Position numbers and translations under genes: made by a program | Notes under the pieces: model-generated | What the model saw: only the letters and a program-made list of their open reading frames with translations | Databases searched by the model: none | Told to the model about the DNA's origin: nothing | In this document: in pieces, positions 39,601 through 63,995 of the stretch | Position numbering within the stretch: the first letter of the stretch is position 1 | Layout of the letters: the number at the start of each line of letters is the position of its first letter | NCBI GenBank assembly: GCA_021163265.1 | Contig: JAGGXC010000023.1 | Span: 6,378 to 70,377, forward strand | Source of the DNA: a bacterium | GTDB lineage: Bacteria > Patescibacteriota > Minisyncoccia > Minisyncoccales > JAGGXC01 | Length of the DNA: 64,000 nt | Reading direction: 5' to 3'

Positions 39601-41851
39601 TGATTTCAATTTTATAAGAGCCTTCAGTTACATAAAGATCAAAATATCCTTGCGAGTTGGCTTGAGCGGCACTAGATTTTCCATTAGCTTTTGGCTCAAA
39701 GGCTATAATCCACAATTCTCGATATTTAATAGCAGATAAGGGATTACCATCAGCTCCGACTATTCTTCCCCTAATTCTTCTATCTGCTTCAGTAAAAGTA
39801 AAGTTGGCAGATGCTGTAGGGGAACCAGCGCTAACAGTAACTGTTTGCGAAGAAGGATCCAACAACTGGCTTGTCCCACTAACAAATGGAGGAATATGAG
39901 CTTCTATTCGATAAGTTCCTTCGTCTGGTAAAGCAAGGGTGTAGTTTGTTGTACAAGAAGTATTAGTCTTAAAGAAAGAAGGTTGAGGACCTCCCGGACC
40001 CATTTCTGCTTCTACTCCTTCAGGTAAAGCCATTACTGCCACTAATTTGTTCTGCCCTTGAGATGTACAGCTTGTCCCTAATGTAATAGTTCCAGACACT
40101 TTATAAGCGGTAGTTCCCTGGAGAATTAAAACCTGAGGACTGGAAGTAGAATTCCCTATCTGGATCTCTGAGCCAGGAGCAGACAGATAAGCTCCAGAAG
40201 CATCAAAAGCCCAACTAAATCCCATTGAAGAAACATTAGGAACTGTATAGAGATAAGAAGAAGGATCAAAGCTCGTTCCATGAGAATCACCATCATAATA
40301 AACATCTTCTGATGTCATAGAACCAATAAATATCCTCATGTTGGTTGAGGTAGCTATAGGATTGGTGGTGGTAGAATCAACGATTTTGAAATAAAGATTA
40401 CCTAAAACGTCAAAAAATGATGACTCCTCAATATCTGAAATTATACCATCGGATGTTCTTACCTGAACTGGCCCTGACTGAGCACCGGCAGGCACAATAG
40501 CAGTAATAAAAGCATCAGACCAAGCAGTAGTGGAGGCTTCTACTGGCGGTAGAGGTCCTGTAGATGGATTAAATCCTCCACAGAAAAGAAGGGTGCCTGT
40601 AGCATTACCAAAATCAGAACCAGAGATAGTCACGGTAGCCCCGGTGGTAGTGGCATTTGGAGAAATAGAGGAAATTTGAGGGACAGAACCCGAATCTACT
40701 GATAGGGTTGTGGTGGAATAACTAAATGGAAACTGTTCATAGTTGGTATCCTGAATACCTGAGGCCGAGAAACTAATCTGAGAACCAACGGTAAGATCCA
40801 ATCCTCTTATTACAACTTGATTGCCAAAGAAATCTATAAAAGGATATCCGGGCTGGCCGCAATTGGAAAGAGTGGATCCATTTATCACGTAATTAGAACA
40901 GGTCATTACCTGATCTCCTCTCAGGGTTTTGTTGGTATTAAAAATTATTCTATCGCTGAGAGCTTTAATAGATGTTACTGATGGAAGAGCAGGCAAGCTG
41001 TATTGAACAAGAGAGCTTGAAGAATTACCCAAAACATCTATTTCTCCTAACCAGACAGAAGAATAATAACTATTTCCAATATTAAAATTGATCTGGCCTG
41101 ATTGACCTACTGAAGTGGTAGCTAGTAGTGTAGTCCCCCCTGCATCAGCATAAGCATAAAGAAGACCTATTTCCCCTACACTGCTTGTAGACTGTAAATA
41201 ATAGTTTCCTCCTTGATAAAAAGCCTTTATCGAACTAGTATTTGGAACTTGCGAATGAGTATCAGCAGGAAATGACTGAGTAGTAGTTGCATTGATACTT
41301 GCAGGCGTACTCGAAGCAATTACTCCATCTGTATCAATACTTACCTCAAATGCTTGACGCACAGCGCTTCCATTTTCGGGCCATCCATTATCTGTCCAGG
41401 AAGTAGAAGAAGCAGTTTTAACTATAACAAAAAACAACCCTTGAGCAGGAGTAGTAGTAGCAGAAGCAATATCAATAGTAGTAGTAACTCCTATTCCTGA
41501 AACAGTGGTCGTAGTTAAAACCACATCTAAAGAACCATCTGAATCTGTATCTTTTCCTACTCCTACCCAATCAAAACTGCTAGTAGAAAGCTCAGTAGGA
41601 GTAGCATTGGTAGAAGAAACAATAGTAATAATCACACTATCTAAATTTTCTGGTGGAGTGGAGGTAGAAGAAAGCTCTATCATCATAACAGATACCTCTG
41701 ACTCTGCTTTTATCTTTCCATTAACCTGAGGGTTCGGTATCAAAACTGTAGAAGTACCAGAAACTGCTGCCTGACAATCAGTAACGAAGAGGAATAAAAA
41801 AAATCCTCCAAAAAGGAGAAAAAAGAAAATTAGTTTTTTGAAATTGAACAT
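36644..41851 (-). CDS. Giant secreted surface protein (1735 aa) with a signal peptide, Thr/Ser-rich Ig-like and carboxypeptidase-regulatory-like repeats, fibronectin type III domains, a coiled coil and a C-terminal peptidoglycan-binding-like domain.
   Basis: N-terminal signal peptide ending ..VTDCQA. FN3-like domains (PTGLNATAGDSQVTLSW..YYYKV). C-terminal module KLKQLLAQVEG..RCTISKFDRNLRKGMTGEDVKCLQIILNSDPD...AVIRFQEKYA, which resembles PG_binding_1. Confidence 0.7.
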   Translation of the reverse strand: MFNFKKLIFFFLLFGGFFLFLFVTDCQAAVSGTSTVLIPNPQVNGKIKAESEVSVMMIELSSTSTPPENLDSVIITIVSSTNATPTELSTSSFDWVGVGKDTDSDGSLDVVLTTTTVSGIGVTTTIDIASATTTPAQGLFFVIVKTASSTSWTDNGWPENGSAVRQAFEVSIDTDGVIASSTPASINATTTQSFPADTHSQVPNTSSIKAFYQGGNYYLQSTSSVGEIGLLYAYADAGGTTLLATTSVGQSGQINFNIGNSYYSSVWLGEIDVLGNSSSSLVQYSLPALPSVTSIKALSDRIIFNTNKTLRGDQVMTCSNYVINGSTLSNCGQPGYPFIDFFGNQVVIRGLDLTVGSQISFSASGIQDTNYEQFPFSYSTTTLSVDSGSVPQISSISPNATTTGATVTISGSDFGNATGTLLFCGGFNPSTGPLPPVEASTTAWSDAFITAIVPAGAQSGPVQVRTSDGIISDIEESSFFDVLGNLYFKIVDSTTTNPIATSTNMRIFIGSMTSEDVYYDGDSHGTSFDPSSYLYTVPNVSSMGFSWAFDASGAYLSAPGSEIQIGNSTSSPQVLILQGTTAYKVSGTITLGTSCTSQGQNKLVAVMALPEGVEAEMGPGGPQPSFFKTNTSCTTNYTLALPDEGTYRIEAHIPPFVSGTSQLLDPSSQTVTVSAGSPTASANFTFTEADRRIRGRIVGADGNPLSAIKYRELWIIAFEPKANGKSSAAQANSQGYFDLYVTEGSYKIEITGLMMPFPVQKDILVDSSSDFDLTDIGLDTTIKLEPPTSYIEGYVKDGSGNGVASVDIYCWCEGGPGGGHAFTDSQGYYKMYVPLCSNYHVGGFAREYGELTEQSNIAVTASQNPIVNFTLESSNFVTISGQVTKNGSAQSDVDVWITRGEFGSGVGWSKTDTSGNYSIKIRKGLSNLYLHAAVPGRGEIYKGILNSGNAVNSDLTGQNISRSTAILEIHLAPGNTFEDVFIGAHSNLGHSFTDVRVSTSSSYDVYKIEVPFSGSTQYTIEGGIPAFGPIPATTVTVSASTTINIDLSSVSYYTVSGTVTVDSGTSSDAFVWAGGPNGGGGTRVNPDGTFTLRLRVGEYDIGVGKAGYSGSVTSTTVNSDISGLTLSLSRNAGVTISGTVQYNSTPVANAMVWASNGQGGWAQTVSDADGSFTLNVSSGDWKIEAVAEGYRLSTPLRITAPATGVTINLSAVDFNPQRKEQSIRASQGGVIQTTDTKVEIPNGALGSEATEVAIRVQNTMKVPEAQGAKIFSSKAKEISAYYSSGDNQGRSITNLNQSVDIEMKLTKSELSAEGISSIDEARKLKISYYDSTANNWVEIPTAVTLTPSDATWSTLQSITLRASTDHFSAFAPSKSSEGAPPTPTGLNATAGDSQVTLSWDSSSGATFYYIYRKSGSQYPFLATTTNTSYTDTGLTNGTTYYYKVSAANDADQESAATDAVSATPSESSSEEESSGGGGISVENLGDTVAPSISDIEAKPGDTYAVITWKTNEPSISWVLYGTSTDYGLEIKTSTTTTFHSLTLSGLLPETTYHYQIKSRDESGNVGFYTNQTFTTLARGEEVIPKQAGEITEIPTVTFEKPISEMTVEEIKEKIFEIMSAIAKLKQLLAQVEGAGTISRCTISKFDRNLRKGMTGEDVKCLQIILNSDPDTKLANSGPGSPGKETNYFGLLTKSAVIRFQEKYAQEILAPWGLVKGTGLVGRTTRAKLNQLLGAR

Positions 41852-41976: not shown

Positions 41977-43743
41977 TTATCTAGTGACTAGTAAAGCGTT
42001 AATTTTCTTACGAGTCATTGGTCCAACAAACCCAGTTCCCTTCTCTAATCCTAATGGATCCAGAATTTCTTCTCTATATTTTTCTTGAAAACGAATCACT
42101 GCTGCTTTTGTAAGACTAAGAAAGTTTCCTGTAACAAGGCCTTCAGGATATATATCAGAACCTTGAGATTTTAAAAATTCTTGTAAGCATCTCACTTGAG
42201 GATTATGCATCATTCCGAAATAAAGATTTTGATAAAAACCATCACATCCAATCCTCGATTGATTATCTTCTTTATTCTCAATTACTGCCAGTTGAGCTTT
42301 TAACTGATTCAAAAGTTCGGTAAGCTCAGCAATTTTGGCTACCAACTCTTCTTTGGTCATTTCTCCAATTGGTTTTTCCAAATATTTAGAATTAACTTGA
42401 GACAAGCTCTCTTTTTTCTTCTCCTCATATATAGTAGAAGCCTCCCAGAAAAAAGGAATTTCAGGCTCAGAATCTGAGAAATCTGAGATTTTTGTCTCTG
42501 CTAAGGGAATAATAGTTACCGAAGTAATGCTCTCTCCTATTTCAGGAACAGTAATCTCTCCTCTTTGCTCTTTGTCAAGATCAAAGAATCCAAGAGACCA
42601 GTTACCAGAAATATCCCTTAAGAGATAGGGTACTCTAAATAAATTCTGAGGATTGCCGATGAATTTTATTTTTAAAACTCCTTTCCCTCCAATAAACTTA
42701 AACCAATTACCTGTCCAGTTCTTGGTTGTTTGATTAACTCCTAAACTACTCTTCCCTCGAAGAGGTAAAAAATTAATCAAAGGAGTAACTCTAATATTTA
42801 AAAGATTTTTGTTTTTAAAACAGTATTCTCTTCCTAAAGAACAATCATTAGCCAATACCGCAATTGCCCAATCAGTAAAGATATCTGAAAAACTTTTTTG
42901 AAACCCATTCTTTACGAGAGCTTCGTTGATACTTGCAATTCCTGTCTTATTTGAATGTAGAGAATCTACAAGTATTTCTATCCCATATTTCTCTACAAGA
43001 TAATGCACAAACATACTCAAAGCACCGTAATCAGCAGAAACGCCCTTCCATTCTGTAATTGAATCTGACGGATTTCTTAGAAAAGTATTTACTCTATCTT
43101 GAAAATAACTACCCACATATTGGTCGTCATATCCTAATAAAGTAGGGGCGTATTCAGCTCTTGCTTCGTTCAACCAGACATCTTCTTTTGCTTTGTACTT
43201 TCTTTCTTTCTGGTTAAAGGTAATTAGATGGACAAACTCGTGAGCCAAGAAGCTTTTAGCCAAAGGACTAGTAATGTATTCCGCGTTTAAATAAAGCATT
43301 TCTCTTTCATTAGAATTAGGAGCCTGAATCCTAGAATATTCATCAGTATCTCTAAAGTATCCGCGCGCCTCTTTCTTCATTGGATGAATCAACACGGTAA
43401 TATTGTAATCTTTATCAATACCGGGCCTCCATTCAGAACCAAAGGTAGATGTTAAAGTAGGATAAATCACATAATAAAATTCTTCTCCCAAAGAATTCAG
43501 AGATTCTTCTATTTTTTGTTTCTCCTGCGAATCAAGAGATCTCCACCAGCTGTTATCAATATAAAAATTTATCTTTTGTGTCTGGAGTTTTAAAGTGGCA
43601 AGCAACTCGTTTCTTCCTGATGCATCGTAAGAAGGATCAACAAAAAAATTCACTTGTTGACCCAAAGTATCAGCAGAAACAATAACAGGTAAAAAAACAA
43701 AAAACAATCCAATAAAAATTAACTTTATGTCATTCCTCATCAA
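41977..43743 (-). CDS. Secreted gluzincin-type metallopeptidase-like protein with a C-terminal coiled coil and peptidoglycan-binding-like module.
   Basis: Signal peptide MMRNDIKLIFIGLFFVFLPVIVSA. HEFVH (HEXXH) with NEARAEY about 20 aa downstream, arranged like the thermolysin third zinc ligand. The C-terminus, LNQLKAQLAV..VRCLQEFL..AVIRFQEKYREE, is shared with the neighbouring genes. Confidence 0.55.
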   Translation of the reverse strand: MMRNDIKLIFIGLFFVFLPVIVSADTLGQQVNFFVDPSYDASGRNELLATLKLQTQKINFYIDNSWWRSLDSQEKQKIEESLNSLGEEFYYVIYPTLTSTFGSEWRPGIDKDYNITVLIHPMKKEARGYFRDTDEYSRIQAPNSNEREMLYLNAEYITSPLAKSFLAHEFVHLITFNQKERKYKAKEDVWLNEARAEYAPTLLGYDDQYVGSYFQDRVNTFLRNPSDSITEWKGVSADYGALSMFVHYLVEKYGIEILVDSLHSNKTGIASINEALVKNGFQKSFSDIFTDWAIAVLANDCSLGREYCFKNKNLLNIRVTPLINFLPLRGKSSLGVNQTTKNWTGNWFKFIGGKGVLKIKFIGNPQNLFRVPYLLRDISGNWSLGFFDLDKEQRGEITVPEIGESITSVTIIPLAETKISDFSDSEPEIPFFWEASTIYEEKKKESLSQVNSKYLEKPIGEMTKEELVAKIAELTELLNQLKAQLAVIENKEDNQSRIGCDGFYQNLYFGMMHNPQVRCLQEFLKSQGSDIYPEGLVTGNFLSLTKAAVIRFQEKYREEILDPLGLEKGTGFVGPMTRKKINALLVTR

Positions 43744-43874: not shown

Positions 43875-46800
43875 CTAGAAGGTCAGCACTCCTCCAAGAA
43901 CTGGTGAAGCAAAGGTTCTGGTAGTTTCAATGGCTGCAGACACACCATCATCCCAGTTAAAGTCAGTACCGTCAGCAATGTAGAACTGAGCAACTGTTCC
44001 TGGGTTACCGCCTGAACCAGCAGAAGCATCCCGAGTATCACCAATTACATAGAATGTCTTGGTAGCGCCAGCAGGAATTGCTTTAGGGGAACTTAGAGTG
44101 AATGTCAATTTCTTACCATTAATCGTATCGGCAACAGTCATTGAAGAAGTGGCCAAAACAGTACTCAGATCGCTACTATCATACAAAGAGAATATTCTCG
44201 TCTGAGACGGTGTGGCATGACCTGTACCTGCGCTCCAGCTAATGGTAGTAGTTACTCCATTCAGGTAAGCAGTGTAATCACCAATATTGGTCACGTCAAA
44301 GTAGAAGACATGATCATACTGGCTTGGGAAGTCGCTTCCTGAAGGAGTACTAGCATTAGCCGCAACGGTTACACCAGTCTTGTAGATGTACATCGGATTA
44401 CCTGCGTAAATACCTGTGGTAGTTGCTGTACTTCCGCTGATAGCTCCTTTATAAGTAATTCCCGCAGTGAGACCACTTGCGCTACTGGTATTAATATTCA
44501 ATGCTACGCTTGAACCAGAACTAGCATAAATGATGTAATTGATCTTTGCTTTCACCATCAAGTTCTTGGTGGTACCTTTAGTGATTATCCATGGATCGCT
44601 TGTAAGATCAAAGATAGCTCTTCCGTGACTGTCAAGAGAAGTCAAAGTAGAACCAATCTGAGTAGAACCATCCCATAAACTAATATCATAGATAGAACTT
44701 GTTGGTGCACCACCTCCCAGACTTGCGGTATATACTATCCTTGTCACCTCTATATCTTCTCCTAAACCAGCTGTAAACTTGGTTTGGGTAAAGTCAATAA
44801 GATCACCCGTACCAGCAATTACATTAGCTGAAATTGGAGTATCATCTCCTTGAGCCACTATTAAACTACCACTATCTGCTATGTGTATAGTCTGACCATT
44901 AACATTCTGAGTGTAGTTCACAGAATTATTTGTAGTCTTACCAGTTCCATCAACTTCATCTATCACTATATAACCACCATTAGCAGTGGAAGTGGTAGTC
45001 TTAATATCAGCATAAATGTATATCGGCAACTGCTGAGAAGCCTCAAGACTAATGTAAGGAGAAGGATAGAAAGTGTAGGTAGAACCGCTTGTCAAGGAAG
45101 ATTGAGTAGAACCAATCTGAGTACCGGTCTCTTTCAAGCCGTTATAAACTTTCAAGTTGGTCAAGTTACCAAATCCAAGAGTTCCATCATCTGTTATCTT
45201 GATAGCAGTAATATCAGCACCTTCCGATGCTCCAGCAGTAATAATGAAGGCACCAACCAAGGCTTCTGTCTGACCAGGAACACCGGTTGGATTTGAAGCT
45301 GACCAGTTGCTTACAGCGCTGTTTTGAGCAACAGTTAAGCTTCCAGACTTAATTGTCAATTGATTACCAGCTGAGCTTACTGAGCTTACTGAAGCCAATG
45401 AATCTCTTCCGGTAGCACTCACAGAGTGAATCTTTACAGTAAGTGTCTCGTTACCAGTGTATGAATTACCATTTGCTTTCTTAACATCAGATTTAATCTC
45501 TATTGTGTGTTCCTGACCGTCAGCAGGTACAATGAAAGTACTGCCAAAAGTAAATGTAGTTGCACCAGCAGCTGCATCAGTAGCAGAAGAAGATGCATTC
45601 TTGGTAGATCCCTTCTGAGAACCATCAAAGTATACTTTCATCTGATATAAACCACTTGTACCAATTGATCCGTAAGTGTGAATTACCATCGAACTAATCT
45701 TTACATCTTCTCCGCTAGCTTTAACAGCAAACTTAGCAAGACTTACGTTGGTTCCATCGAGAGGAATATTTCCGCTTGGAGAATCAGAAGCTCTGGTCAA
45801 TGTCAGCTTACCAGTGTTGATGGTAGAAGCAGTGGCTTTCAAAACTGTCCATCCTGAAGCATTAGGTTTGATGTAGACACCATAACCTTGATCATATGCT
45901 TCAATATCGGTCTGCTCCTGAATTGAGAATTGGAAAGTTCTGTTGGTACCTCCAACAATATCAGCTCTCAGATGCATATTCTTGGTCACACCCTTGTCAA
46001 TCACCAATGGGTTGCTACCAAAATCAAATGTTACTGTCTTGTCACTTGCCATATCAGCAATAGTGTCAAGCAGTTGTGTACCGCCATCATATAACTTGAA
46101 GTTCTTCAAGTCACCGGCAGCAGTAGAACCCATATTGGTGAACTTGATCTTTCTGATCTCAATCTTCTGATCCATCGCAGTCAAATTAAAGTTGAATACC
46201 TCAAAATTATCCTGAGGATCAACGCTAGCAGATGGATCAGTGGAAGTAGCAACAGTTAACTTTCCAAGGTCAGAAGCAGTAGCAGTAGTCAGGGTATTTC
46301 CAGTGATTGGGAAACTGCCACTAACCTCTACACCATCTGTAATATAATCGGCAGAATCTATGCTGAAGTAGAATGTCTTTCCTGAACCAGTACCGTTAGC
46401 CAAATCAAACTTGAAAGTAATAGTCTTTGTTCCTCCGGCGGGAACAGTAAACAATCCACTGGAGTTCTCGAAGACCATTACTTTATCAGAGAAAGAATTG
46501 TATTCAGCTAACTTAGTATCGCCATCATAAAGATAACCTTGAGCAATATCGCTATCAGCAGAAATTCCGTTTCTCTTTATCTTCAGAGTGGTTATTGTTA
46601 CATCTGAATCAGTTCCATTAGAGAATGTAACTTTTAAAGCTGGAATTAATGCCTGAGCTCCATCATTTGAAGTGCTGTCAGCAACGATGGTACCTGCAGC
46701 AGGCGTATCAGCAGCTAAAGCTACTGAGAATTCTCCGGTTGTAACACCACCTGTTTCACCTCCAGTCTCGCCACCTGTTTCACCACCTGTTTCGCCGCCT

Positions 46801-47279
46801 CCTGCACCAGCACTCAGAAGCTCATTCAGCTTTGCTCGAGTTGTGGAACCAACAAACCCAGTTCCGCTTGTTAAACCCCAAGGAGAAAGAACTTCTGCTG
46901 CGTATTTCTCTTGGAATTTAATAACAGCTGCCTTGGTCAAAGGACCAAAGTAGGAAGTCTCATTACCAGGAGAACCTGGACCTGAGTCAGCTACTTTTGT
47001 GTCAGGATCAGAGTTAAGTACTATCTGTAAGCACTTAACATCATCTCCTGTCATTCCCATACTCAGGTTGCGGTCAAAGCTGGTAATGGTACACCCTGTA
47101 ATTGTAGCAGCTCCTCCTCCTTGTATTGCGGCTAACTGAGCTTGAAGTTGAGCCAACTGAGCAAGTAATGCATCAATCTGAGCCTGCAGCTCTTCAGCAG
47201 TAACAGCACTTGCACTCGGAGCTATTGCCCAAAATGAAATGCTTAATGCTAATGCGAATGCGAATAACTTTTTTAACAT
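43875..47279 (-). CDS. Large secreted surface protein (1134 aa): signal peptide, N-terminal coiled coil plus peptidoglycan-binding-like module, a GGET linker, then many beta-rich Ig-like repeats.
   Basis: Signal peptide ..APSASA. EELQAQIDALLAQLAQLQAQLAAIQ is followed by CTITSFDRNLSMGMTGDDVKCLQIVLNSDPD..AVIKFQEKYAAE, the same module as in the 1735-aa and 588-aa proteins. Confidence 0.7.
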   Translation of the reverse strand: MLKKLFAFALALSISFWAIAPSASAVTAEELQAQIDALLAQLAQLQAQLAAIQGGGAATITGCTITSFDRNLSMGMTGDDVKCLQIVLNSDPDTKVADSGPGSPGNETSYFGPLTKAAVIKFQEKYAAEVLSPWGLTSGTGFVGSTTRAKLNELLSAGAGGGETGGETGGETGGETGGVTTGEFSVALAADTPAAGTIVADSTSNDGAQALIPALKVTFSNGTDSDVTITTLKIKRNGISADSDIAQGYLYDGDTKLAEYNSFSDKVMVFENSSGLFTVPAGGTKTITFKFDLANGTGSGKTFYFSIDSADYITDGVEVSGSFPITGNTLTTATASDLGKLTVATSTDPSASVDPQDNFEVFNFNLTAMDQKIEIRKIKFTNMGSTAAGDLKNFKLYDGGTQLLDTIADMASDKTVTFDFGSNPLVIDKGVTKNMHLRADIVGGTNRTFQFSIQEQTDIEAYDQGYGVYIKPNASGWTVLKATASTINTGKLTLTRASDSPSGNIPLDGTNVSLAKFAVKASGEDVKISSMVIHTYGSIGTSGLYQMKVYFDGSQKGSTKNASSSATDAAAGATTFTFGSTFIVPADGQEHTIEIKSDVKKANGNSYTGNETLTVKIHSVSATGRDSLASVSSVSSAGNQLTIKSGSLTVAQNSAVSNWSASNPTGVPGQTEALVGAFIITAGASEGADITAIKITDDGTLGFGNLTNLKVYNGLKETGTQIGSTQSSLTSGSTYTFYPSPYISLEASQQLPIYIYADIKTTTSTANGGYIVIDEVDGTGKTTNNSVNYTQNVNGQTIHIADSGSLIVAQGDDTPISANVIAGTGDLIDFTQTKFTAGLGEDIEVTRIVYTASLGGGAPTSSIYDISLWDGSTQIGSTLTSLDSHGRAIFDLTSDPWIITKGTTKNLMVKAKINYIIYASSGSSVALNINTSSASGLTAGITYKGAISGSTATTTGIYAGNPMYIYKTGVTVAANASTPSGSDFPSQYDHVFYFDVTNIGDYTAYLNGVTTTISWSAGTGHATPSQTRIFSLYDSSDLSTVLATSSMTVADTINGKKLTFTLSSPKAIPAGATKTFYVIGDTRDASAGSGGNPGTVAQFYIADGTDFNWDDGVSAAIETTRTFASPVLGGVLTF
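46749..46796 (-). repeat. Four tandem 12-nt repeats encoding (GGET)x4.
   Basis: Plus-strand acctgtttcacc / tccagtctcgcc / acctgtttcacc / acctgtttcgcc. They encode a Gly-Gly-Glu-Thr linker that could vary in length. Confidence 0.5.
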
Positions 47280-54005: not shown

Positions 54006-54599
54006 CTATTCCAAGGATAATGTATCTAAAAATTTATTAAATTCTTGGTTACAAGTTTCTATTTCTTGAGAACCACTATATATACAAATACTATACACTC
54101 TATCTTGAGAGGGAATATAGACTGCATCTCCATACCCTAGCACTTTATCCAGAAACTCATTTCTCAAAGCATTTATCTGTTTTATTTCTACTGACACAAT
54201 CCTATCAATTTCTATGGTAGGACTAGTATGCATTTCTTTAATTCTTTCTTCTATCTCATCAATACTCATACTTTTATATATAACAGCCACTTCAATCATA
54301 CATCCCTTTTTAAGAGGAGGACGCAAAGGTCCAGTAGGATATACACTCTCAGCATCAGGACTATAAAGCACTACAGATCCTTCATCTACTTCTACCTTTT
54401 TGACTTTCCATCCTTCTGGAACCTTGAATTTCAATCCTGCTTTTAAGTTTTCTACAACTTTTCCTTCGTTGCTTTCTTTAATCACATAATCATCGGGGCT
54501 TCCTTTTATTTCTCTCTTATTTGTCTTCCACCAAAAAACTCCTCCAGCAATAATAAGGAGGACAATTAACAAAAACAGAAAAATTGAGTTTTTTTTCAT
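54006..54599 (-). CDS. Hypothetical N-terminally membrane-anchored protein.
   Basis: A single N-terminal transmembrane helix (IFLFLLIVLLIIAGGVFWW). It lies 8 nt upstream of the LTD gene. No family recognised. Confidence 0.4.
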   Translation of the reverse strand: MKKNSIFLFLLIVLLIIAGGVFWWKTNKREIKGSPDDYVIKESNEGKVVENLKAGLKFKVPEGWKVKKVEVDEGSVVLYSPDAESVYPTGPLRPPLKKGCMIEVAVIYKSMSIDEIEERIKEMHTSPTIEIDRIVSVEIKQINALRNEFLDKVLGYGDAVYIPSQDRVYSICIYSGSQEIETCNQEFNKFLDTLSLE

Positions 54600-56517: not shown

Positions 56518-56847
56518 TTATTTTATCTTTTCTTTGTCAAAACTCTCCAGTTTTTTATAGAGGGAAGATTTCTTGGTAATAATCTTGTAAATATTCTCAA
56601 TAAAATCTCCTCCCGCATATCCTACAATAAATCCAAGCGCTGGCGTAAAAGAACCAAGAAATTCAAAACCCAATTCTTTTATTGCCCCTGCGCACAGAAC
56701 TCCAATCACTCCCGAGATAAACATCATTGTCAAAAAATAAGGAAGATCAAAACCCACATTTTTATAAGAAAATTGATGCTTCACAAAACCAACCAGTCCT
56801 CTTACCACTCCGCCCCCAAAACCAGCAATGAGAATTTGGAGATACAT
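56518..56847 (-). CDS. Small integral membrane protein.
   Basis: Three predicted transmembrane helices with Gly-rich segments. No family recognised. Confidence 0.4.
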   Translation of the reverse strand: MYLQILIAGFGGGVVRGLVGFVKHQFSYKNVGFDLPYFLTMMFISGVIGVLCAGAIKELGFEFLGSFTPALGFIVGYAGGDFIENIYKIITKKSSLYKKLESFDKEKIK

Positions 56848-56857
56848 AAGAATATAA

Positions 56858-57757
56858 TTAGTGAGACATTATCCTCACATATTTAATAGTATAATCAATA
56901 GGTATATGAATCTGGGGAACAAAATCAGGTAAGGGATAAATTTCTAGCATCCCTCCAGGGGGAACCCAAACAGTGGGAAGGAGAGTAAAAGAAAAACTTT
57001 TGCTTTCTCCTGCGTCAAGACTTATTGTTGTTTTACACCAGAAATTATCATCACCTGCCTCGCGATTACACTCGCTTTCTTTTTGGGCCGGTAACAAAGA
57101 AAACCCAGATTCTTTTCTTAAACCAAATTCAATATTATTTAAAGGAATCGTCCAATTGTTTATCACCTCTATCTTTACCTCAAACGGCTGATCAACCGTG
57201 ACCATTTCTGGAGCATCCATATCGATACTCACAGCGGGCTTTTCTTCAAAACATTTAGAAATCATCACATCATCAAGATAGTATACTGTCTGTTCAGATG
57301 CTTCTGGCAAGAGAGGATGCCAGGTTGTTTTTGCTATTTTTCCTGAGATAGCACCAAAGAAACACTCGCCAGTCTTGGAATCAACACACGCATCTATCAT
57401 ACCTACTTTGTTATATATCTTTGCTGGAACTTTTCCTTCCTCGCAGCTAAGACAGAAACCTCCAAAGGCACACCCCTCTTCTTTTTCTATAAATATTTTA
57501 TCTAGATTAATCTTTTTGCCTACTTTATTCTTTAAATCGCCCCACCCCTCCCAAGAAAGCTCTGGATCGTCTAGCGAATAAGAAACAACAGGTGGGGAAA
57601 CCGGTGTCGGACGAGGAACTATCAAATAAGCAATAATCCCTATAACTGCAACTACAATAACGATTACCACAAAAAGAACAATTTCTTTTAAAAAATGATT
57701 TGAGAATAAATTCTTTTGATTTTGATTGTTGTTCTCGTTTTGCTTTTCTGTTTCCAT
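56858..57757 (-). CDS. Hypothetical membrane-anchored, Cys-rich extracytoplasmic protein.
   Basis: An N/Q-rich N-terminus, one transmembrane helix (IVLFVVIVIVVAVIGIIAYLIV), a Pro-rich stalk and a Cys-containing domain. Confidence 0.4.
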   Translation of the reverse strand: METEKQNENNNQNQKNLFSNHFLKEIVLFVVIVIVVAVIGIIAYLIVPRPTPVSPPVVSYSLDDPELSWEGWGDLKNKVGKKINLDKIFIEKEEGCAFGGFCLSCEEGKVPAKIYNKVGMIDACVDSKTGECFFGAISGKIAKTTWHPLLPEASEQTVYYLDDVMISKCFEEKPAVSIDMDAPEMVTVDQPFEVKIEVINNWTIPLNNIEFGLRKESGFSLLPAQKESECNREAGDDNFWCKTTISLDAGESKSFSFTLLPTVWVPPGGMLEIYPLPDFVPQIHIPIDYTIKYVRIMSH

Positions 57758-57787
57758 GTTTTTTATTGTTAATTATTTTATTTTTGA

Positions 57788-58291
57788 TTATTTTATCTCA
57801 AAACGAGCCGAAGAATCATTTAAACACTCCCATCTATCCACAAATAAATGATAGTCATACACTGGACATTTTCCGTTTACCTGACCCGGCTCGCACTCTA
57901 TTTCTATTTTCTTTAAAACTCCTTCTACCTTAAGAATACCCTCACAAGAAATGTTTTCTTTTGAATGTAGCATCACCTGTTTTCCTTCTGTTAGATCAAG
58001 ATATTCAGAATAAGCGTATTCTTTATACTTATCTGCTAATTCAGGGGTAACTACATGTTCTCGTATCAAAGATGCAATACTTCCTTTAAGAGAAACTTTC
58101 TTGCCGTCACAAAGATTGAGCGAAGACCTACAAAATTCTTTTGAAGCAAGGACTACCTCTGTCTCACTACGTCCTTCTTTTTGCATAGCCAAAAATTCCA
58201 TCCAAGTTATATTTGCAACCAAAGAAGCAAGGCACAATATAATAAGAATAGCTAAAGGTGTAGATATTCCTTTATTTAAATAATTATACAT
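57788..58291 (-). CDS. Secreted or membrane-anchored protein carrying the conserved KYLNKGISTP leader (paralog family member 3).
   Basis: The N-terminus, MYNYLNKGISTPLAILIILCLASLVA, is shared with the two upstream paralogs, including at the nucleotide level. Confidence 0.5.
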   Translation of the reverse strand: MYNYLNKGISTPLAILIILCLASLVANITWMEFLAMQKEGRSETEVVLASKEFCRSSLNLCDGKKVSLKGSIASLIREHVVTPELADKYKEYAYSEYLDLTEGKQVMLHSKENISCEGILKVEGVLKKIEIECEPGQVNGKCPVYDYHLFVDRWECLNDSSARFEIK

Positions 58292-58320
58292 AGTTTTGTA
58301 AATATTAATTATTACTCCAT

Positions 58321-58350
58321 TTTACCAAAAAATCGCCAAAAAGGCGATTT
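58321..58350 (-). terminator. Rho-independent terminator between paralogs 2 and 3.
   Basis: On the minus strand, AAATCGCC, a 5-nt loop and GGCGATTT, followed by TTTTGG. It lies about 30 nt upstream of the ATG at 58291. Confidence 0.5.
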
Positions 58351-58474
58351 GAATAATCAACATTGTTAAAACATTACCTCATAGTAATTAACAAACTCAC
58401 TCCAAAAATTTAAAAGTAGAAAGGATCTGGCTAAAAAATCTTTCTTTACTATAGAAAAGAAAATTAGCTTAATT

Positions 58475-59761
58475 TCATCTTAGAAAACGGAATGTTTTTG
58501 CAACCTCGGTAAGTTCCTCAAAAGCGTCATACACATTGAAAGGGAATCCATACATTTCTGCTTCCTTGATTGCTTGTTCTCTTTTTACTGGCCAGTTAGT
58601 AAATCCATACCCAGCTACAATTATCTGAATACGATAACACATATTATCCCGCAGCGTACTAAATCGTCGCATAGAAAATCTGTTTCCCATACCAGCATCA
58701 CTAAACTCAGTTCTCATAAATCTGATCCCATTTATTATTTCTTCCTCACTTTCTCTTATCCTCGCCGAAGAAGATAAGCAATCACTTAAAGCTTTCGTAG
58801 AAGTCCCAATCTCAAATTCAATTAAAGCAGAAATCTCTTTGGTAGACCCAGGCATTTTTAACCGTTTTAAAATTTTAAAATCTTTTTCTTCCTGAGATTG
58901 ATAATATAAATAATAATCATGATATTTCGTGTCTGACTCAACTAAATACTTAGGGTATGTTACCTCAAATCCATATTTCTCGTCTTTATAGGTTTCTTCA
59001 TTAGCAATCTTTTCTGACTTTTCTGGCTTTCCTAAAAATCTAAAAGTGGAAAGCATTTTGTTAAAAATTTTTCTATTCTCTGCTTCCCACATTTTTCTCT
59101 CTTCCTCATTTCGGGGTGTGTCAATAATCTGATAGGATATCTCATAAAGTCGTAATCCTCTCGGTAAATAAACCACATCTGCCGGTCCCTCTCCTCCTGG
59201 AGGTAAACCAACAAATTGATTAAGTCTCACTCCCCGAACTCCATCAATAACGACATACTCACTCTTTCTATAACTTCTTTTGATCCTCTCAAGCGAAAAA
59301 GAAGATGGAATTTCACTAACACATACCGTAAAATTACTTAAAGCATTTAGCCCAAAATCTTCATCAGTACTAGTCCATTTATCGCTTTCATGATAAAAAG
59401 ATACTTCGATTAAACGATAAAGAGAGCCAACAGGAGAAAATTCTTCCGTGAAGGAATAGCGAATATCAACACTCTCCCTCATATCCGGATACTGTATCTC
59501 AAATCCATACTTTTCACTCCTTCCAATGCTCCAACCAGTTTCTTTATCTATTCCAACGACCTTAAAATCAGTAGTTTCGTCTTTCTTTTCCGAACGTTTT
59601 GTCTCTTTCTTTTCTGGAATTATAATCTCAGGCAATTCTATTCCTTGTTTCCACATCTTCCCATGCTCCCACCAAATAAATCCGCCTACAATGATAGCTA
59701 AAATAAGGATGATAGACAAAGCTACAGGTGTAGATATTCCTTTGTTGAGGTATTTGAGCAT
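58475..59761 (-). CDS. Secreted or membrane-anchored protein with the KYLNKGISTP leader and two YGFE(I/V)xYP repeat domains (paralog 2).
   Basis: N-terminus MLKYLNKGISTPVALSIILILAIIVGG. Internal repeats KYGFEIQYPD and KYGFEVTYPK. Confidence 0.55.
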   Translation of the reverse strand: MLKYLNKGISTPVALSIILILAIIVGGFIWWEHGKMWKQGIELPEIIIPEKKETKRSEKKDETTDFKVVGIDKETGWSIGRSEKYGFEIQYPDMRESVDIRYSFTEEFSPVGSLYRLIEVSFYHESDKWTSTDEDFGLNALSNFTVCVSEIPSSFSLERIKRSYRKSEYVVIDGVRGVRLNQFVGLPPGGEGPADVVYLPRGLRLYEISYQIIDTPRNEEERKMWEAENRKIFNKMLSTFRFLGKPEKSEKIANEETYKDEKYGFEVTYPKYLVESDTKYHDYYLYYQSQEEKDFKILKRLKMPGSTKEISALIEFEIGTSTKALSDCLSSSARIRESEEEIINGIRFMRTEFSDAGMGNRFSMRRFSTLRDNMCYRIQIIVAGYGFTNWPVKREQAIKEAEMYGFPFNVYDAFEELTEVAKTFRFLR

Positions 59762-59863
59762 AAATTTAACAATTGTATTATAACCCTTTATTGATTATCT
59801 TACTCTGTCAAAAAATGATTGCTCGACAATTGCATTTACCGCTTAGAGAATTTACACAAGATA

Positions 59864-61639
59864 CTAATTAGAAACCAACTCAAATCGACAACTCTTTTCA
59901 TTCCATTTTAATATCTTATAATCAGTTTCTGGACAGGGCTCGCCTGAATAATGTGCAATAGCAGGAACTTTTTTAACTATAACTTCGTTACCTGAGAAAG
60001 TCATTTTTAAACCATATGTAGGCCCAGAAGCTGCTTCAATATAAGGGAAAGATATCAAAGGAATATAGGAACTACTATTTTCTTCTAGAGAAATGCTGTC
60101 TACAAATTGAACTCTTTTGAATTCTCCTTTATCTACTTTTATTACTTGAAGAGAATCATCACAACATGACCCATTAGCGCATGGCCCCGAAATAGAGGCA
60201 ATATATTTTGTGCCATCGCTTTTGCAATTAAAAAATTTAAACGTTCCCCTATCGCCCCCTATATGGTAACTAGCAAGAGAGCCGGTTAGATCACTAAATC
60301 TCTTAAAGTTGATGGGAGGGGTAATTAAATCTTTGTTTTCATTAAACACTCCTAAATATGCATGATACAAACCTCCTACATGTGCAACCCCAGCAAGTTG
60401 AGCAATAAAGAGATATTCTCTAGCATAAGGAGTTGAAAAGGAACCTTTTATTACCTTATCGAGATAAAGAGTGGTGTACTCATCTTTTGAGGGAGACAGT
60501 ATCTCATTACCTTTTATGCCAGCTAACGAAGGAAATATTTGTTTTAACATTTTCTCTTTTTCTTGGATCGAAAGATCGCCAGCAATGGTGAAATAATTAT
60601 CACTAAAATCCTCAGCATAATATTCTCTTCCTTTAGTGCTCTCAATTAGAATAACATATCTAGAAGGAGGCAAATCGTCTGGAATAATCCATTCATATTT
60701 TCCTTCTTGAGCAGGAATATTACTCACAATCTTTCTTTCTGTTAGATAATCTCTCTCACTATTTGTCTCTTCTAACAAGATATTAACTTTTGATACTCCT
60801 CTCGATTTCCAAGATATAACACATTTATCTCCATTCTTATAATTCTCTCCTCCATTAGGAGATAAAACAGTAATATACCTTTCTTTATTAATAAACTTAA
60901 AAGTAGAAAGTATTTTGTCTACCAAAGAATCTAATTTTTGGTAGTCTGTTTCTCTTCCTTTCAAACATTCGGAATCTCCTCTCGGACAATTACTATATCC
61001 AATTGAGAAACTTAAAGATATATGTTTATTATCTTTACTTGTAACATACTCAAGTTCTTTCTCGCATGATCCCATACCACAACTTACTCCGCTAAGTTTA
61101 CAATAAATTGAGGTATTAATTACTACTTTTTCCTGGTAAACATTGGGGTGATTCCTAGCAAAACTAGGATCTACAAAATCCTCTGGTCTTGGTTGAGGAC
61201 CTGCAACAGGCCCCATATTAAGAGTTGAGCAATTGAAATCTGAACCAGCATCTTTTACTTTAATTTCAGGAGGCCAATCAGACTGACTAATATACTTCAA
61301 TTCAATTTCTTTAAGATCTTCTGGATACTTTATCTCAAACCCATATTCTTCATTCTTATAGGTTTTCCAGTTAGAGGTATCAATTTCTTCTGTTGAAGTA
61401 CTTTCTTGTGGTTGAGTAGAGGTAGCTTCTTTTTCTTCCTCAAGAACTATTGTCTTATCTGGAATCTTAACCTCTGGAAGGTTGGTTTCTTCCTTCTGTA
61501 TCTCTGAATACTGCCAGAAGGTAAAGATACCTACAATAATGGCAAGGATTAGAATAATAGATAGGGCTCGGGGTGTAGATATTCCTTTGTTGAGATATTT
61601 GAACATAAAAAATATTTTATTAATAAAATATTTTATCAA
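59864..61639 (-). CDS. Secreted or membrane-anchored protein with the KYLNKGISTP leader and a YGFEIKYP domain (paralog 1). The true start is likely the internal Met at 61606.
   Basis: The sequence from the second Met, MFKYLNKGISTPRALSIILILAIIVG, aligns with the N-termini of the other two paralogs. It also has EEYGFEIKYPED and a Cys-rich C-terminal half. Confidence 0.55.
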   Translation of the reverse strand: MIKYFINKIFFMFKYLNKGISTPRALSIILILAIIVGIFTFWQYSEIQKEETNLPEVKIPDKTIVLEEEKEATSTQPQESTSTEEIDTSNWKTYKNEEYGFEIKYPEDLKEIELKYISQSDWPPEIKVKDAGSDFNCSTLNMGPVAGPQPRPEDFVDPSFARNHPNVYQEKVVINTSIYCKLSGVSCGMGSCEKELEYVTSKDNKHISLSFSIGYSNCPRGDSECLKGRETDYQKLDSLVDKILSTFKFINKERYITVLSPNGGENYKNGDKCVISWKSRGVSKVNILLEETNSERDYLTERKIVSNIPAQEGKYEWIIPDDLPPSRYVILIESTKGREYYAEDFSDNYFTIAGDLSIQEKEKMLKQIFPSLAGIKGNEILSPSKDEYTTLYLDKVIKGSFSTPYAREYLFIAQLAGVAHVGGLYHAYLGVFNENKDLITPPINFKRFSDLTGSLASYHIGGDRGTFKFFNCKSDGTKYIASISGPCANGSCCDDSLQVIKVDKGEFKRVQFVDSISLEENSSSYIPLISFPYIEAASGPTYGLKMTFSGNEVIVKKVPAIAHYSGEPCPETDYKILKWNEKSCRFELVSN

Positions 61640-61791
61640 AATTATCTTGTGTTGACAGAAAATTTTGAGAAAAACTCTTGCTCTTAAAGAATTTTAGCAA
61701 ATTGAGAAGACACCAACAAACTACCTAGCAATTAACTCAAAACAGGTTTCCCTCCAAAAGTCATTCTTAATTTTGTTGCCCAGAACAGGGT

Positions 61792-62442
61792 TTATGCACG
61801 GTAATCCTTTCTGATTACCTTTCTTCTAAACAGAAGACAGAAAAGCATACCTGTTAAGAATCCTCCGATATGAGCCATATAAGCTACTGAGGTAGAAACA
61901 CCCATATACAACAATTGATAAAGAAACCAAACACCCACAAAGAAAAAGGCTGGAATATCATATACAAAAGCTCGGTAAAATAAAAATATTAATGTCTTTA
62001 TTTTATTGTAGGGATACAAAACAACATATGCACCAATTACTCCTGAGATAGCACCCGAAGCTCCCACCATTGGCATATACATATCTTTAGAAGAAGCCAT
62101 AAAAACATGAATCAAACTTGCGATTACTCCAACCAGAAGATAAAAAGCAAGAAATCTTAGTGGTCCGAAATTAAACTCTACGTTATCTCCAAAAATCCAT
62201 AAAAACCACATATTTCCTATCAAATGAAAAACTCCGGCATGTAAAAATAATGATGTTATTAAAGTAAAAAGTCTCTTGCCTTCTAAAATATTGTAAGGAA
62301 TTACCCCAAACGTAGAAAGTGTTCCTTCCGGAGAAATACTGAAAATTGTAAAGATAAACACAAAAACATTAATTCCGATAAGAGCGAAAACAATGTAAGG
62401 AGGACTTATTGATGGAGCAGATTCGTCGTAGAGAGGAAACAT
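61792..62442 (-). CDS. Rhomboid-family intramembrane serine protease.
   Basis: Six transmembrane helices. GASGAISGVIGAY is the catalytic GxSG motif and AHIGGFLTGMLF supplies the catalytic His in TM6. Confidence 0.8.
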   Translation of the reverse strand: MFPLYDESAPSISPPYIVFALIGINVFVFIFTIFSISPEGTLSTFGVIPYNILEGKRLFTLITSLFLHAGVFHLIGNMWFLWIFGDNVEFNFGPLRFLAFYLLVGVIASLIHVFMASSKDMYMPMVGASGAISGVIGAYVVLYPYNKIKTLIFLFYRAFVYDIPAFFFVGVWFLYQLLYMGVSTSVAYMAHIGGFLTGMLFCLLFRRKVIRKDYRA

Positions 62443-62456
62443 AAATTAACCAATTA

Positions 62457-63995
62457 CTAGAATTCCAACTCATTTACCTTTTCCCAGTCTATTTCGTTGA
62501 GGACGGTTATCTTGTTGTCGCCGATTATATACAAATAATCGTTGATATAAATTGCTCTTCTTGCTCTAATTCCACTCACTGCTTTTTGTAGTTTCAGTTC
62601 ATCGTTATTATAAGAGAACACATATCCTCCCTTAGAGCCCGGCATAAAGAATATCTTGTGTTTTTTGTCTAAAAGAAAGGCATGATGGGTATTTAAGATA
62701 TCCGACCAATATTCATCAAGAATATATTTATCTGCTTCAGAAGGATCGTCAGGAGAACTCACATCAAACAAAGATATTTTTACTTTTGAACCTTCTTTTC
62801 CTATACCAAGAACTCTCTCTTTTGTAATTGGATGAAGGTAAGAAGAAAAACCAGGAATCTTAAGTTCTCCTTTTAATTCTGGTTTTTGAGGATCAGATAA
62901 ATCAAGCACATAAAACGGATCTATCCGACGGAAAGTCACTACATATCCTTTATCCTCAACAAATCTGACCGAATAAATTCTTTCTCTCAAGCCAAGATCT
63001 TTAACTGAACCAACAATTTTTAAGTCTTTATCCAACACATATACATCATTTGCTGATTCTCTGCTACTAATACCAATTGATCCCATTCCAAAAAATCTTT
63101 CTCCTACAGTAATGGCTATTCTCAGATGATTTTGATATTCATCGAGAGAAAACTGATTGAGCGGTTTCCCGGGAACATCTCCAGAAGCATAAATCTCAAA
63201 ATCCTTCAATCCTATTTTTACTATTCCTGTTCTTTCTAAGTCTCTTTTGTGCTTTTTATAATAATCAGAAAGGCGATTGGTAAGTTCGTTTTCTATTCTT
63301 AGTCTTTCATCGTCACTCAGAGAACTAAAATATTTTTCAATAAGAACTTGAAACTCTGTCATCTTTGCTGCCTTACTTATATCGTATTCGGAAAGTTTGT
63401 TAAGTTTTGAAATAAACCAATCGGGAATTATATCCTGACACTCTTGATTAAAGAAATTAGCAAAAAATTCAATAAGGTCACCCCAGTAAGAATATGTGAC
63501 ATAAATCCCTTTAGTAGACATATAAACAACAGATGAATCAGAAGAGCCCACAAAGGAAATCTTTTTCTCAATTTTTCCAGAACGAGGATCAACAATCATA
63601 GCCGTGTAGGTAACATCAACAGGAACCGGCCTTATCGGATGATAGATATCAGTACACTTTACCTCTAAAGGAGCTCCTTCTATCACTAAAGGTTTGATTG
63701 GACAAGGTCGAAAAGTATTTATGGTTGTTTTTGTAACAAGATATAACTTTCCATTGTAAAGACGGGCACCGGTTATAAAGTTTCTCTTCTCGATTTCAAT
63801 TACCCATTTCTTTTCCGGTGATTTAGGATTAGAAACATCATATCCATAAATCTTATCTCCTGAGAAAATCATCAATATATTGTCTGATAAAAGCAAATTG
63901 CCTATTTTATCAATTTCTTCCTCGATCTTTAAATCTGTAGGAGGAAAAGCTTTTATTACTTTTGTTATACCTTTAATCCAGTAAGGTATCCTCAT
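62457..63995 (-). CDS. Beta-propeller-domain protein (PF09826-like). It is probably N-terminally incomplete and continues beyond the window.
   Basis: The C-terminal half (RFVEDKGYVVTFRRIDPFYVLDLSDPQKPELKGELKIPGFSSYLHP) matches the secreted beta-propeller family common in archaea and CPR. No signal peptide is visible at the annotated start, so the gene likely extends past 64000. Confidence 0.55.
   Translation of the reverse strand: MRIPYWIKGITKVIKAFPPTDLKIEEEIDKIGNLLLSDNILMIFSGDKIYGYDVSNPKSPEKKWVIEIEKRNFITGARLYNGKLYLVTKTTINTFRPCPIKPLVIEGAPLEVKCTDIYHPIRPVPVDVTYTAMIVDPRSGKIEKKISFVGSSDSSVVYMSTKGIYVTYSYWGDLIEFFANFFNQECQDIIPDWFISKLNKLSEYDISKAAKMTEFQVLIEKYFSSLSDDERLRIENELTNRLSDYYKKHKRDLERTGIVKIGLKDFEIYASGDVPGKPLNQFSLDEYQNHLRIAITVGERFFGMGSIGISSRESANDVYVLDKDLKIVGSVKDLGLRERIYSVRFVEDKGYVVTFRRIDPFYVLDLSDPQKPELKGELKIPGFSSYLHPITKERVLGIGKEGSKVKISLFDVSSPDDPSEADKYILDEYWSDILNTHHAFLLDKKHKIFFMPGSKGGYVFSYNNDELKLQKAVSGIRARRAIYINDYLYIIGDNKITVLNEIDWEKVNELEF

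Follow-up and report, generated by a model that had tools for sequence, protein, structure and literature searches.

Why should neighbouring proteins keep nearly the same first residues when the bodies behind them diverge? The question is raised by a 64-kb stretch of the genome of an ultra-small, uncultured bacterium of the Patescibacteria type (contig JAGGXC010000023.1, NCBI locus tags J7K24_; the whole stretch is called the window below), in which three tandem genes, here g167, g428 and g591, encode products that open with the common pattern M-x-(K/N)-Y-L-N-K-G-I-S-T-P-x-A-(L/I), followed by a hydrophobic helix. An earlier note on this DNA, made from its letters alone, had described three tandem paralogs with a common leader and diverging bodies, and both observations were borne out: the N-termini of g167, g428 and the 580-aa g591 product (MYNYLNKGISTPLAILIILCLA, MLKYLNKGISTPVALSIILILAIIVGG, MFKYLNKGISTPRALSIILILAIIVGI) share the leader, and in BLASTP comparisons the similarity of g167 to g428 and g591 stops at residues 51-57. 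We find that the leader is a lineage-restricted N-terminal module, true matches to which lie solely in Patescibacteria/Paceibacterota-type metagenome-assembled genomes (MAGs) and metagenome contigs, and we suggest that it most likely tethers surface proteins to the membrane.

The three genes and their leader

All large open reading frames (ORFs) of the window lie on the minus strand, at a G+C content of about 34%, and its gene content includes SecA, MurB, a rhomboid protease and glycan-synthesis enzymes. According to the ORF list, g167 (57788-58291, minus) encodes 167 aa, made up of the leader and a small Cys-containing body, and g428 (58475-59761, minus) encodes 428 aa, which AlphaFold and Foldseek divide into the leader, a disordered stalk and two tandem PsbP-fold domains. 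The third gene, g591 (59864-61606, minus; 580 aa), combines the leader with an acidic stalk, a PsbP-like domain, a Kre9_KNH immunoglobulin-like (Ig-like) domain and a C-terminal region of unassigned fold. The ORF program had listed g591 at 59864-61639, with a TTG start and 591 aa. We take its true start to be the ATG at 61606 (the second Met), the TTG start adding 11 spurious residues, because the public gene call (MCD6550456.1 in NCBI, annotated as a hypothetical protein) begins there, because a TG-extended -10 element overlaps the upstream TTG, and because the homologues all have tails of just 4-15 residues ahead of the motif.

The leader corresponds to codons 1-33 of each gene. In g591 (61508-61606, minus) it comprises the basic tail MFKYLNKG, an S-T-P helix start, a predicted transmembrane helix and the aromatic end FWQY; in g428 (59663-59761, minus) it reads MLKYLNKG / ISTPVALSIILILAIIVGGFIWWEH, with a helix modelled over residues 11-38 (predicted local distance difference test, pLDDT, 88-94). 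The g167 copy (58193-58291, minus) is the most diverged, having neither GG nor WWQY.

Distribution and conservation

The family was searched for exhaustively by phmmer, with g428 as query, among 1.84 billion cluster representatives (50%-identity clusters of public metagenomes). At E ≤ 1e-3 there were 527 matches, many covering only query residues 1-55, and the counts of leader proteins given here are taken from the best 150 of them. The leader is present in 89 of these 150 representatives, on diverse bodies, and so in at least 89 clusters. It always stands at the extreme N-terminus of the ORF, in Patescibacteria/Paceibacterota MAGs, and runs for about 55 residues with the consensus M(W/F/L)KYLNKG-ISTPIAIGIILIL(A/V)I(L/I)VGGFTWWQY-xE(I/M)xKEExxLPE(V/I)x(I/L)PEKKE. 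If the Gly of K-G is numbered -1 and the Ile of I-S-T-P +1, then among the 89 members K or R occupies -2 in 100%, and I+1 (93%), S+2 (94%), T+3 (87%) and P+4 (89%) are nearly as constant; within the helix, A+6 is kept in 85%, I+7 in 91%, G+18 in 83% and G+19 in 74%, and the W, Q and Y at +23 to +25 in 69-79%. Position -1 is looser, with G in 66 members (including all three window genes), K in 13, R in 4, A in 3 and E in 3, that is, K, R, E or A in 26%.

In a second survey a back-translated DNA pattern of the leader was scanned against contig collections. Among contigs representing one genome per species it matched 17 stretches, about 8 of which are chance matches (in unrelated phyla and off ORF starts), near the number of about 10 estimated from the information content of the pattern. 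The true matches comprise 11 genes in seven MAGs named Candidatus Paceibacterota, Staskawiczbacteria or, in third-party assemblies, Saccharibacteria, and metagenome contigs added about 16 further leader genes; in every case the motif lies 4-9 codons past the ATG. Several genomes have two or three leader genes near one another. The pattern had no match in a viral contig collection, and carriage of leader genes by phages was rejected on that ground. A word-index search gave no candidate with the 40-aa leader and 13 short fragments with a leader profile, and neither result gauges the size of the family.

No Pfam or NCBIfam model covers the leader, in the three proteins or in leader consensus sequences, and a literature search on the motif and on leader or anchor families of the candidate phyla radiation (CPR) found no description of it. 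As a type, export or anchor signals at the N-terminus of paralogous surface proteins whose genes have a homogenised 5' end are already known; what seems not to have been described before is this particular module, with its strong conservation and its confinement to a single CPR lineage. The earlier note had proposed a lineage-specific sorting or processing signal, of which the lineage-restricted N-terminal module is upheld; whether it sorts or is processed is weighed below.

Looser relatives may exist. Four PsbP-like CPR proteins (P0003, P0013, P0042 and P0074) have a layout of K-G/E, F/I, T/A/L and P, then a helix, GG(G) and aromatics (for example QKGFTPIVIALIVVILAGAGG), and the KGISTP leader may thus be one subtype of a broader CPR anchor style. 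Within the window, a 197-aa protein (54006-54599, minus) has a different N-terminal anchor, LLIIAGGVFWWK, which has only the GG-aromatic end in common with the leader; its body starts GLKFKVPEGW, resembling YGFExxYP, and a homologue adjoins a leader gene in another locus (L040), so it may be a distant relative of the family.

Bodies behind the leader

Beyond the leader, g428 and g591 have residues 1-113 in common (42%) together with one further domain, in which the PsbP-like domain of g591 (residues ~78-240 of 580; 60887-61375, minus) aligns with the second domain of g428 at 24% identity (E 2e-07, BLASTP). An AlphaFold model of g428, built with 52 homologues, has a pLDDT of 77.8. Its helix passes into a disordered segment at residues 39-61 (pLDDT < 50), followed by alpha/beta domains at residues 66-243 and 255-428. 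The disordered segment (59579-59647, minus) is charged and contains Pro, in keeping with the E(I/M)xKEExxLPE(V/I)x(I/L)PEKKE part of the family consensus, and is called the stalk here. Domain 1 (59033-59566, minus) has YGFEIQYP near its start (59486-59509) and ends STFRFL; domain 2 (58478-58999, minus) has YGFEVTYP near its start (58952-58975) and ends KTFRFL. No Pfam family matches g428, but in Foldseek both domains matched the PsbP structures 4rth, 1v2b and 2xb3 with probability 1.0 and target TM-scores of 0.55-0.66, and they also matched CyanoP and envelope proteins such as DcrB and LpqN. The g591 domain approaches the Pfam family PsbP_2 (E 2.2e-4), with a score below the cut-off (21.7 bits against 27), and the Ig-like domain after it (60602-60862, minus) matches Kre9_KNH (PF10342, E 1.7e-08, 35.5 bits against a cut-off of 24.6).

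The YGFExxYP repeats that had been noticed in two of the proteins need some revision. The motif is present in both, twice in g428 (Y85-P92 and Y263-P270) and once in g591 (YGFEIKYP, Y88-P95 in the 580-aa numbering; 61322-61345), but a repeat feature is not supported, as each copy stands at the start of a PsbP-fold domain. As to the g167 body, a homologue search gave one 93%-identical fragment and no other, and a single-sequence AlphaFold model (pLDDT 39) was too poor for use.

The same mixture is found across the family. In a Pfam scan of 85 leader proteins, PsbP_2 (PF18933) was matched in 28 (best E 8e-16), FG-GAP, Gmad2, Kre9_KNH, GH113 and PD40 were found in single cases, and over half had no Pfam match at all. 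The passenger domains of g428 and g591 have the fold of the PsbP/Mog1-type envelope proteins (PF18933 PsbP_2; DcrB, LpqN, MTC28). Proteins of the DcrB, LpqN and MTC28 type carry lipoprotein or ordinary signal peptides, whereas here the PsbP-like domain is mounted on a conserved leader and stalk, and is doubled in g428.

The leader as a probable membrane anchor

The anatomy of the module suggests a membrane tether: a short basic tail, an S-T-P helix start, about 23 hydrophobic residues that include V-G-G, a W-W-Q-Y end and an acidic, Pro-containing stalk. The tail has a median of 8 residues (4-15) and a net charge of +1.9; it is followed by an uncharged stretch of 26 residues (median), and the next 20 residues past the helix carry a net charge of -2.4. 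Since the tail is basic and the stalk acidic, the positive-inside rule predicts an N-in/C-out topology, and the hydrophobic length points to a membrane span rather than the core of a signal peptide. A conserved flexible stalk, moreover, would be sensible only with the helix still attached, which argues for a tethered protein. The signal peptides on other secreted proteins of the window are of the ordinary, variable kind, with Ala at -1 (CQA before A, VSA before D, ASA before V, ILA before D), and at least two of these proteins carry the wall-binding module PG_binding_1; because these proteins use ordinary Ala(-1) signals, the leader would mark a separate class with a different fate. We consider it slightly better than an even bet (a probability of roughly 0.5) that the leader is an uncleaved N-in/C-out signal anchor of the Sec/SRP (signal recognition particle) type, with a stalk that displays extracytoplasmic domains; both the topology and the lack of cleavage are inferred from sequence.

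Under such an arrangement the tail would lie in the cytoplasm and the helix would cross the membrane of the single-membrane Patescibacteria cell, with S-T-P, at residue 11 where the modelled helix starts, apparently capping the helix at the inner interface and W-W-Q-Y apparently forming an aromatic belt at the opposite, outer interface. The stalk would keep the variable extracytoplasmic domain, in the window a PsbP-fold or Ig-like domain, away from the membrane. On this reading the family grows through tandem duplication, while recombination or gene conversion holds the start of the leader, and in some genomes the promoter too, near-identical within a genome as bodies diverge or are exchanged. 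In its short basic cytoplasmic tail, helix of more than 20 residues, acidic outer flank and extracytoplasmic passenger, the leader resembles a type II signal anchor. Ordinary anchors of that kind, however, are unconserved between unrelated proteins, whereas in this family some 25 positions of the helix, and the stalk with them, have been retained in at least 89 clusters, and within genomes the leader DNA is homogenised.

Several observations speak against a plain anchor. V-G-G at +17 to +19 meets the -3/-1 rule of signal peptidase I (SPI) in about 90% of members, and a short basic tail ending in K-G before a conserved hydrophobic helix resembles class III (pilin-type) signals. The overuse of the codons AAC, GGA, ATA and TCT across genomes is not accounted for by an anchor. 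Finally, a plain anchor needs no such sequence conservation, so that something is left unexplained; we suspect that the conservation of the helix reflects a specific membrane partner or self-association along its small-residue face.

Alternative explanations

A more elaborate possibility is that Patescibacteria have in the leader a dedicated, hitherto undescribed signal for sorting at the N-terminus, its unusually conserved helix being read by a membrane partner that processes or organises surface proteins, and its homogenised 5' block serving also as a family-wide regulatory or recombination site for plugging passengers in behind a promoter-leader cassette. The partner would be an assembly platform, a relaxed peptidase of the prepilin type or some other intramembrane protease, in a manner comparable to the archaeal use of class III signals for non-pilin surface proteins. 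We hold this to be a real but minority possibility.

A cleavable Sec signal peptide is a rather doubtful alternative. It would be composed of an n-region MxKYLNKGIST, an h-region PIAIGIILILVII and a c-region V-G-G, and SPI would cut before F+20 and release a protein starting with FTWWQY and the stalk. The occupancy of +17 by V, A, L or G and of +19 by G or S in about 90% of the 89 members fits the -3/-1 rule, and a length of about 27 residues, typical of Sec signals in single-membrane bacteria, also favours it. However, the hydrophobic run continues through F-T-W-W, giving 26 uncharged residues without a polar c-region, and the aromatic WWQY just past the putative site is itself conserved. The classical signal peptides of the window have shorter h-regions than the leader, Ala at -1 and no conservation; signal peptides normally vary freely, which the leader does not. 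A released protein would hardly explain the conserved flexible stalk of the g428 model. As for lipoprotein processing, the leader consensus contains no lipobox Cys.

It is also unlikely that the leader is a divergent class III signal, similar to those of type IV or archaeal pilins, which would be cut after K-G and whose helix would dock the protein into a pilus-like or bindosome-like assembly. The likeness lies in the tail of 4-15 residues, basic and usually terminated by K-G, and in the conserved hydrophobic helix of about 25 residues that follows it on varied bodies, much as in the proteins with different C-termini that share TIGR02532, PF07963 or PF07790. The order K/R-G, hydrophobic residue, S, (T), P and hydrophobic run presumably recalls the N-termini of archaeal pilins, these too without Glu at +5. 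A further point in its favour is the known reliance of Patescibacteria on type IV pili (PMC11623550). Against these stand the Pro at +4 and the residue at +5, which is I, V or L and E or D in 0 of 99 members; the G at -1, too, is not invariant, and adjacent genes of one locus (L032) carry R and G variants. There was no match to a prepilin or archaeal pilin model in Pfam or NCBIfam (E up to 1 for full-length Pfam scans and up to 10 for the others), the leader profile matched no full-length pilin chain in the PDB, and in the g428 model the helix leads into a disordered stalk and is not packed on a globular head. The gene contexts examined contain neither pilus genes nor a prepilin peptidase close to the leader genes, and no A24 peptidase was found in them or among the 19 Pfam-scanned window proteins. 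Canonical GFTLIE-type pilins were absent from 258 kb of related loci, which precludes a contrast with canonical pilins of the same genomes. The lack of Glu at +5 and of any TIGR02532 or PF07963 match agrees with the earlier note, which had set the leader apart from type IV prepilin leaders and likewise from YSIRK-type signals. The leader shares with YSIRK and KxYKxGKxW of Gram-positive surface proteins that a conserved motif, placed within an export signal at the N-terminus, singles out some of the surface proteins; its motif and spacing differ, however, the YSIRK/KxYKxGKxW motif is absent, an NCBIfam scan at E up to 10 gave no match (TIGR03715 included), and a clear signal peptidase site is lacking.

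Might the N-termini be alike by common descent only, in recently duplicated paralogues with nothing special about them? The genes are tandem, g428 and g591 have a PsbP-like domain in common, and near-identical leaders occur in several MAGs. The silent sites tell otherwise: among the first 40 codons of the three genes, outside a 17-nt block, the positions with the same amino acid differ synonymously in 12 of 12 cases, none having a common codon. Because silent sites are thus mostly saturated while the amino acids are kept, the leader is held by selection at the protein level. The module occurs on unrelated bodies in at least 89 clusters at 50% identity from many samples, and identity stops abruptly at the end of the helix. 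The earlier note had reasoned that a motif confined to these genes, with identity running uniformly through them, would indicate a simple recent duplication; instead, 89 of the 150 representatives carry the module and the bodies diverge. This explanation is, on the sequence evidence, largely refuted and quite improbable.

Still less credit attaches to the idea that the leader is the substrate signal of the adjacent rhomboid-family protease (61792-62442, minus; PF01694, 7.5e-34), which would make it an N-terminal mirror of GlyGly-CTERM and rhombosortase, cut near V-G-G at the outer leaflet so that the ectodomain is shed or transferred. The rhomboid gene lies directly upstream on the same strand, and the leader has a conserved GG near the outer end of its helix and basic residues on the cytoplasmic side. 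With the N-terminus inside, however, its orientation would be opposite to that of known bacterial rhomboid substrates. The GlyGly-CTERM signal consists of a Gly-Gly motif, a membrane helix and a basic cluster, found on many proteins (PMC3237569, PMC6219818), and the leader has the same three elements in reverse order; it is N-terminal where GlyGly-CTERM is C-terminal, with the opposite topology. By score the window enzyme is no rhombosortase (TIGR03902, 33.8 bits against a cut-off of 84). The adjacency is peculiar to the window, the syntenic locus L021 having no rhomboid and none adjoining leader genes in about 25 other loci, and g167 and g591 are without GG. A functional link between leader and rhomboid was therefore rejected, on synteny and on the rhombosortase score, and a link to the neighbouring beta-propeller gene was rejected on synteny; the protease is context and probably not part of the system.

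Identity at the nucleotide level

The earlier observation that the leader is conserved also at the nucleotide level holds, and it concerns a short block. The 17-mer AAAGGAATATCTACACC, which spans the codons of K-G-I-S-T and the CC of Pro, is identical in g591 (61572-61588), g428 (59727-59743) and g167 (58257-58273), all minus; with the preceding AAY the identity is 19-20 of 20. It has no other occurrence in the 64 kb at up to 2 mismatches, 0.01 matches being expected by chance, nor is there an antisense or inverted copy in the window. The K-G-I-S-T codons are the same in all three genes, for which the joint probability is about 9e-5 at the codon usage of the window. The block is, as judged from these sequences, an additional phenomenon, separate from the selection on the protein.

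The pattern stands out more sharply among paralogues of other MAGs. The three genes of JAQTZP agree at 97-100% of positions between -8 and about +110 and at about 30% thereafter; those of CAZSHN, also three, agree at 94-100% as far as +35, counted from the ATG, and at 52-79% in the helix; and in L032 about 110 nt comprising terminator, promoter and 5' untranslated region have been duplicated along with the first leader codons (about 1280-1430 and 3500-3650) at 85-100% identity. Silent positions of Thr and Pro differ between genomes, and on contig Ga0272441_10000003 there is no homogenisation among leader genes. Copies in one genome are thus more alike than copies from different genomes, which is the mark of gene conversion or cassette recombination, and conversion within genomes fits better than a conserved RNA element. 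Of the two explanations that the earlier note had offered, gene conversion is thus supported by paralogues elsewhere, 94-100% identical over the leader start with an abrupt fall to about 30%, and the RNA element is not: an Rfam scan of the window found nothing, and folding of the three 5' regions gave no common structure (z-scores -0.5 to -1.6).

Codon choice is biased as well. Across 30 non-identical genes, which are not phylogenetically independent, the use of AAC is 69% in the leader against 25% in the bodies of the same genes, that of GGA 83% against 47% and ATA 67% against 37%, and TCT, and GTA at +17, are also overused. The bias may come from selection on the 5' coding region of Shine-Dalgarno-less mRNAs, or from the non-independence of the genes.

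Least probable of all is that the identity marks an RNA- or DNA-level element, such as the binding site of a family-wide regulator or small RNA or a recombination site: the three genes agree in all five K-G-I-S-T codons and in 0 of 12 elsewhere in the leader, the CAZSHN MAG has the same 5' peak of identity and the codon bias extends across genes, but these genes are not independent, no Rfam family, common fold or antisense copy was found in the window, Thr and Pro third positions vary between genomes, one contig is not homogenised, and direct repeats would delete rather than invert.

The leader genes may be compared with multigene families having homogenised 5' ends, such as the variable lipoproteins of Mycoplasma and the tandem lipoprotein clusters of staphylococci. 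They are likewise tandem, with a near-identical signal-encoding 5' region, sometimes including the promoter, and diverged bodies; they differ in lacking a lipobox Cys, in having no repeats or invertible elements that we could see, and in showing no evidence of phase or antigenic variation.

Promoters and translation starts

A separate -10-like element lies 15-27 nt upstream of the ATG in each of the three genes (TGGTAAAAT, TATAAT and TGATAAAAT, respectively, for g167, g428 and g591). The putative extended -10 of g167 (58319-58327, minus) lies about 27 nt upstream, with no Shine-Dalgarno sequence; the candidate -10 of g428 (59777-59782, minus) lies 15 nt upstream and was not flagged by the promoter scan, having no -35; and for g591 the scan gave CTGTCA-17-TAAAAT with an upstream TG, corresponding to the extended -10 at 61630-61638 (minus). 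Upstream of g167 is a terminator-like hairpin, AAATCGCC-TTTTT-GGCGATTT (58330-58350, minus), the T-run of which enters the g167 promoter. The earlier note's terminator-separated gene is thereby upheld in part: the hairpin was visible in an RNA fold and went unflagged by a consensus terminator scan.

A TGGTAnAAT element is also found upstream of leader genes in other loci, and the TTTTTGGTAnAAT arrangement recurs upstream of leader genes elsewhere, twice directly past a tRNA gene. A tRNA gene immediately precedes the leader gene in L032 (about 1280-1430 and 3500-3650) and in L020 (upstream of 9692). In several genes (58319-58350 in the window; L020, L028 and L032) a TG-extended -10 is preceded by a T-run that is the tail of the preceding terminator hairpin.

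With Shine-Dalgarno-like sequences in 3 of 48 window genes, the genome is essentially Shine-Dalgarno-free. The AAAGGA within the 17-nt block was considered as a Shine-Dalgarno or pausing site and rejected, given that frequency and the lack of an in-frame start at a suitable distance.

Neighbourhood and other features of the window

The rhomboid (PF01694) and beta-propeller (PF09826, 1e-94) genes named by the earlier note as neighbours were both confirmed. In the syntenic locus L021 a glycosyltransferase, a YbaB-like gene, a gene for a 109-aa membrane protein and the beta-propeller gene are kept (55-68% identity), and the same flanking genes enclose just one leader gene, whose Cys-rich body is unrelated. 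The interval from the beta-propeller gene to the gene of the 109-aa membrane protein (56518-63995 of the window, 600-5500 of L021) is thus a variable island, which in the window holds the rhomboid, the three leader genes and a 299-aa anchored protein and in L021 a 105-aa ORF and the one leader gene.

Three large secreted proteins with ordinary signal peptides (36644-41851, 41977-43743 and 43875-47279, all minus) have in common a module of about 130 aa with 43-64% identity, which matches PG_binding_1 in two of them and is C-terminal in two, whereas in the third it directly follows the signal peptide; it resembles a movable unit for attachment to the wall. Near the start of the window, a TrwB/TraG-type coupling-protein ATPase with a treble-clef zinc finger adjoins a 423-aa membrane protein without a Pfam match (955-2598 and 2621-3892, minus), and the pair may be the remnant of a DNA or protein translocation system, or a minimal one. 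The protein encoded at 3898-4926 (minus) has sigma-70 region 4 and HARE-HTH domains.

Significance

Patescibacteria are believed to spend their lives attached to other microbes, and for most of their surface proteins the annotation is 'hypothetical'. A recognisable leader would be a sequence handle by which part of the surface proteome of one CPR lineage can be listed; it would improve the annotation of start codons and topology, and would flag proteins likely to mediate contact with the host. If it is true that a dedicated enzyme processes the leader, then it would be an N-terminal addition to the catalogue of prokaryotic sorting signals, which have so far been mainly C-terminal. The promoter-leader cassette homogenised within genomes also offers a tangible example of the way in which very small genomes produce new surface proteins.

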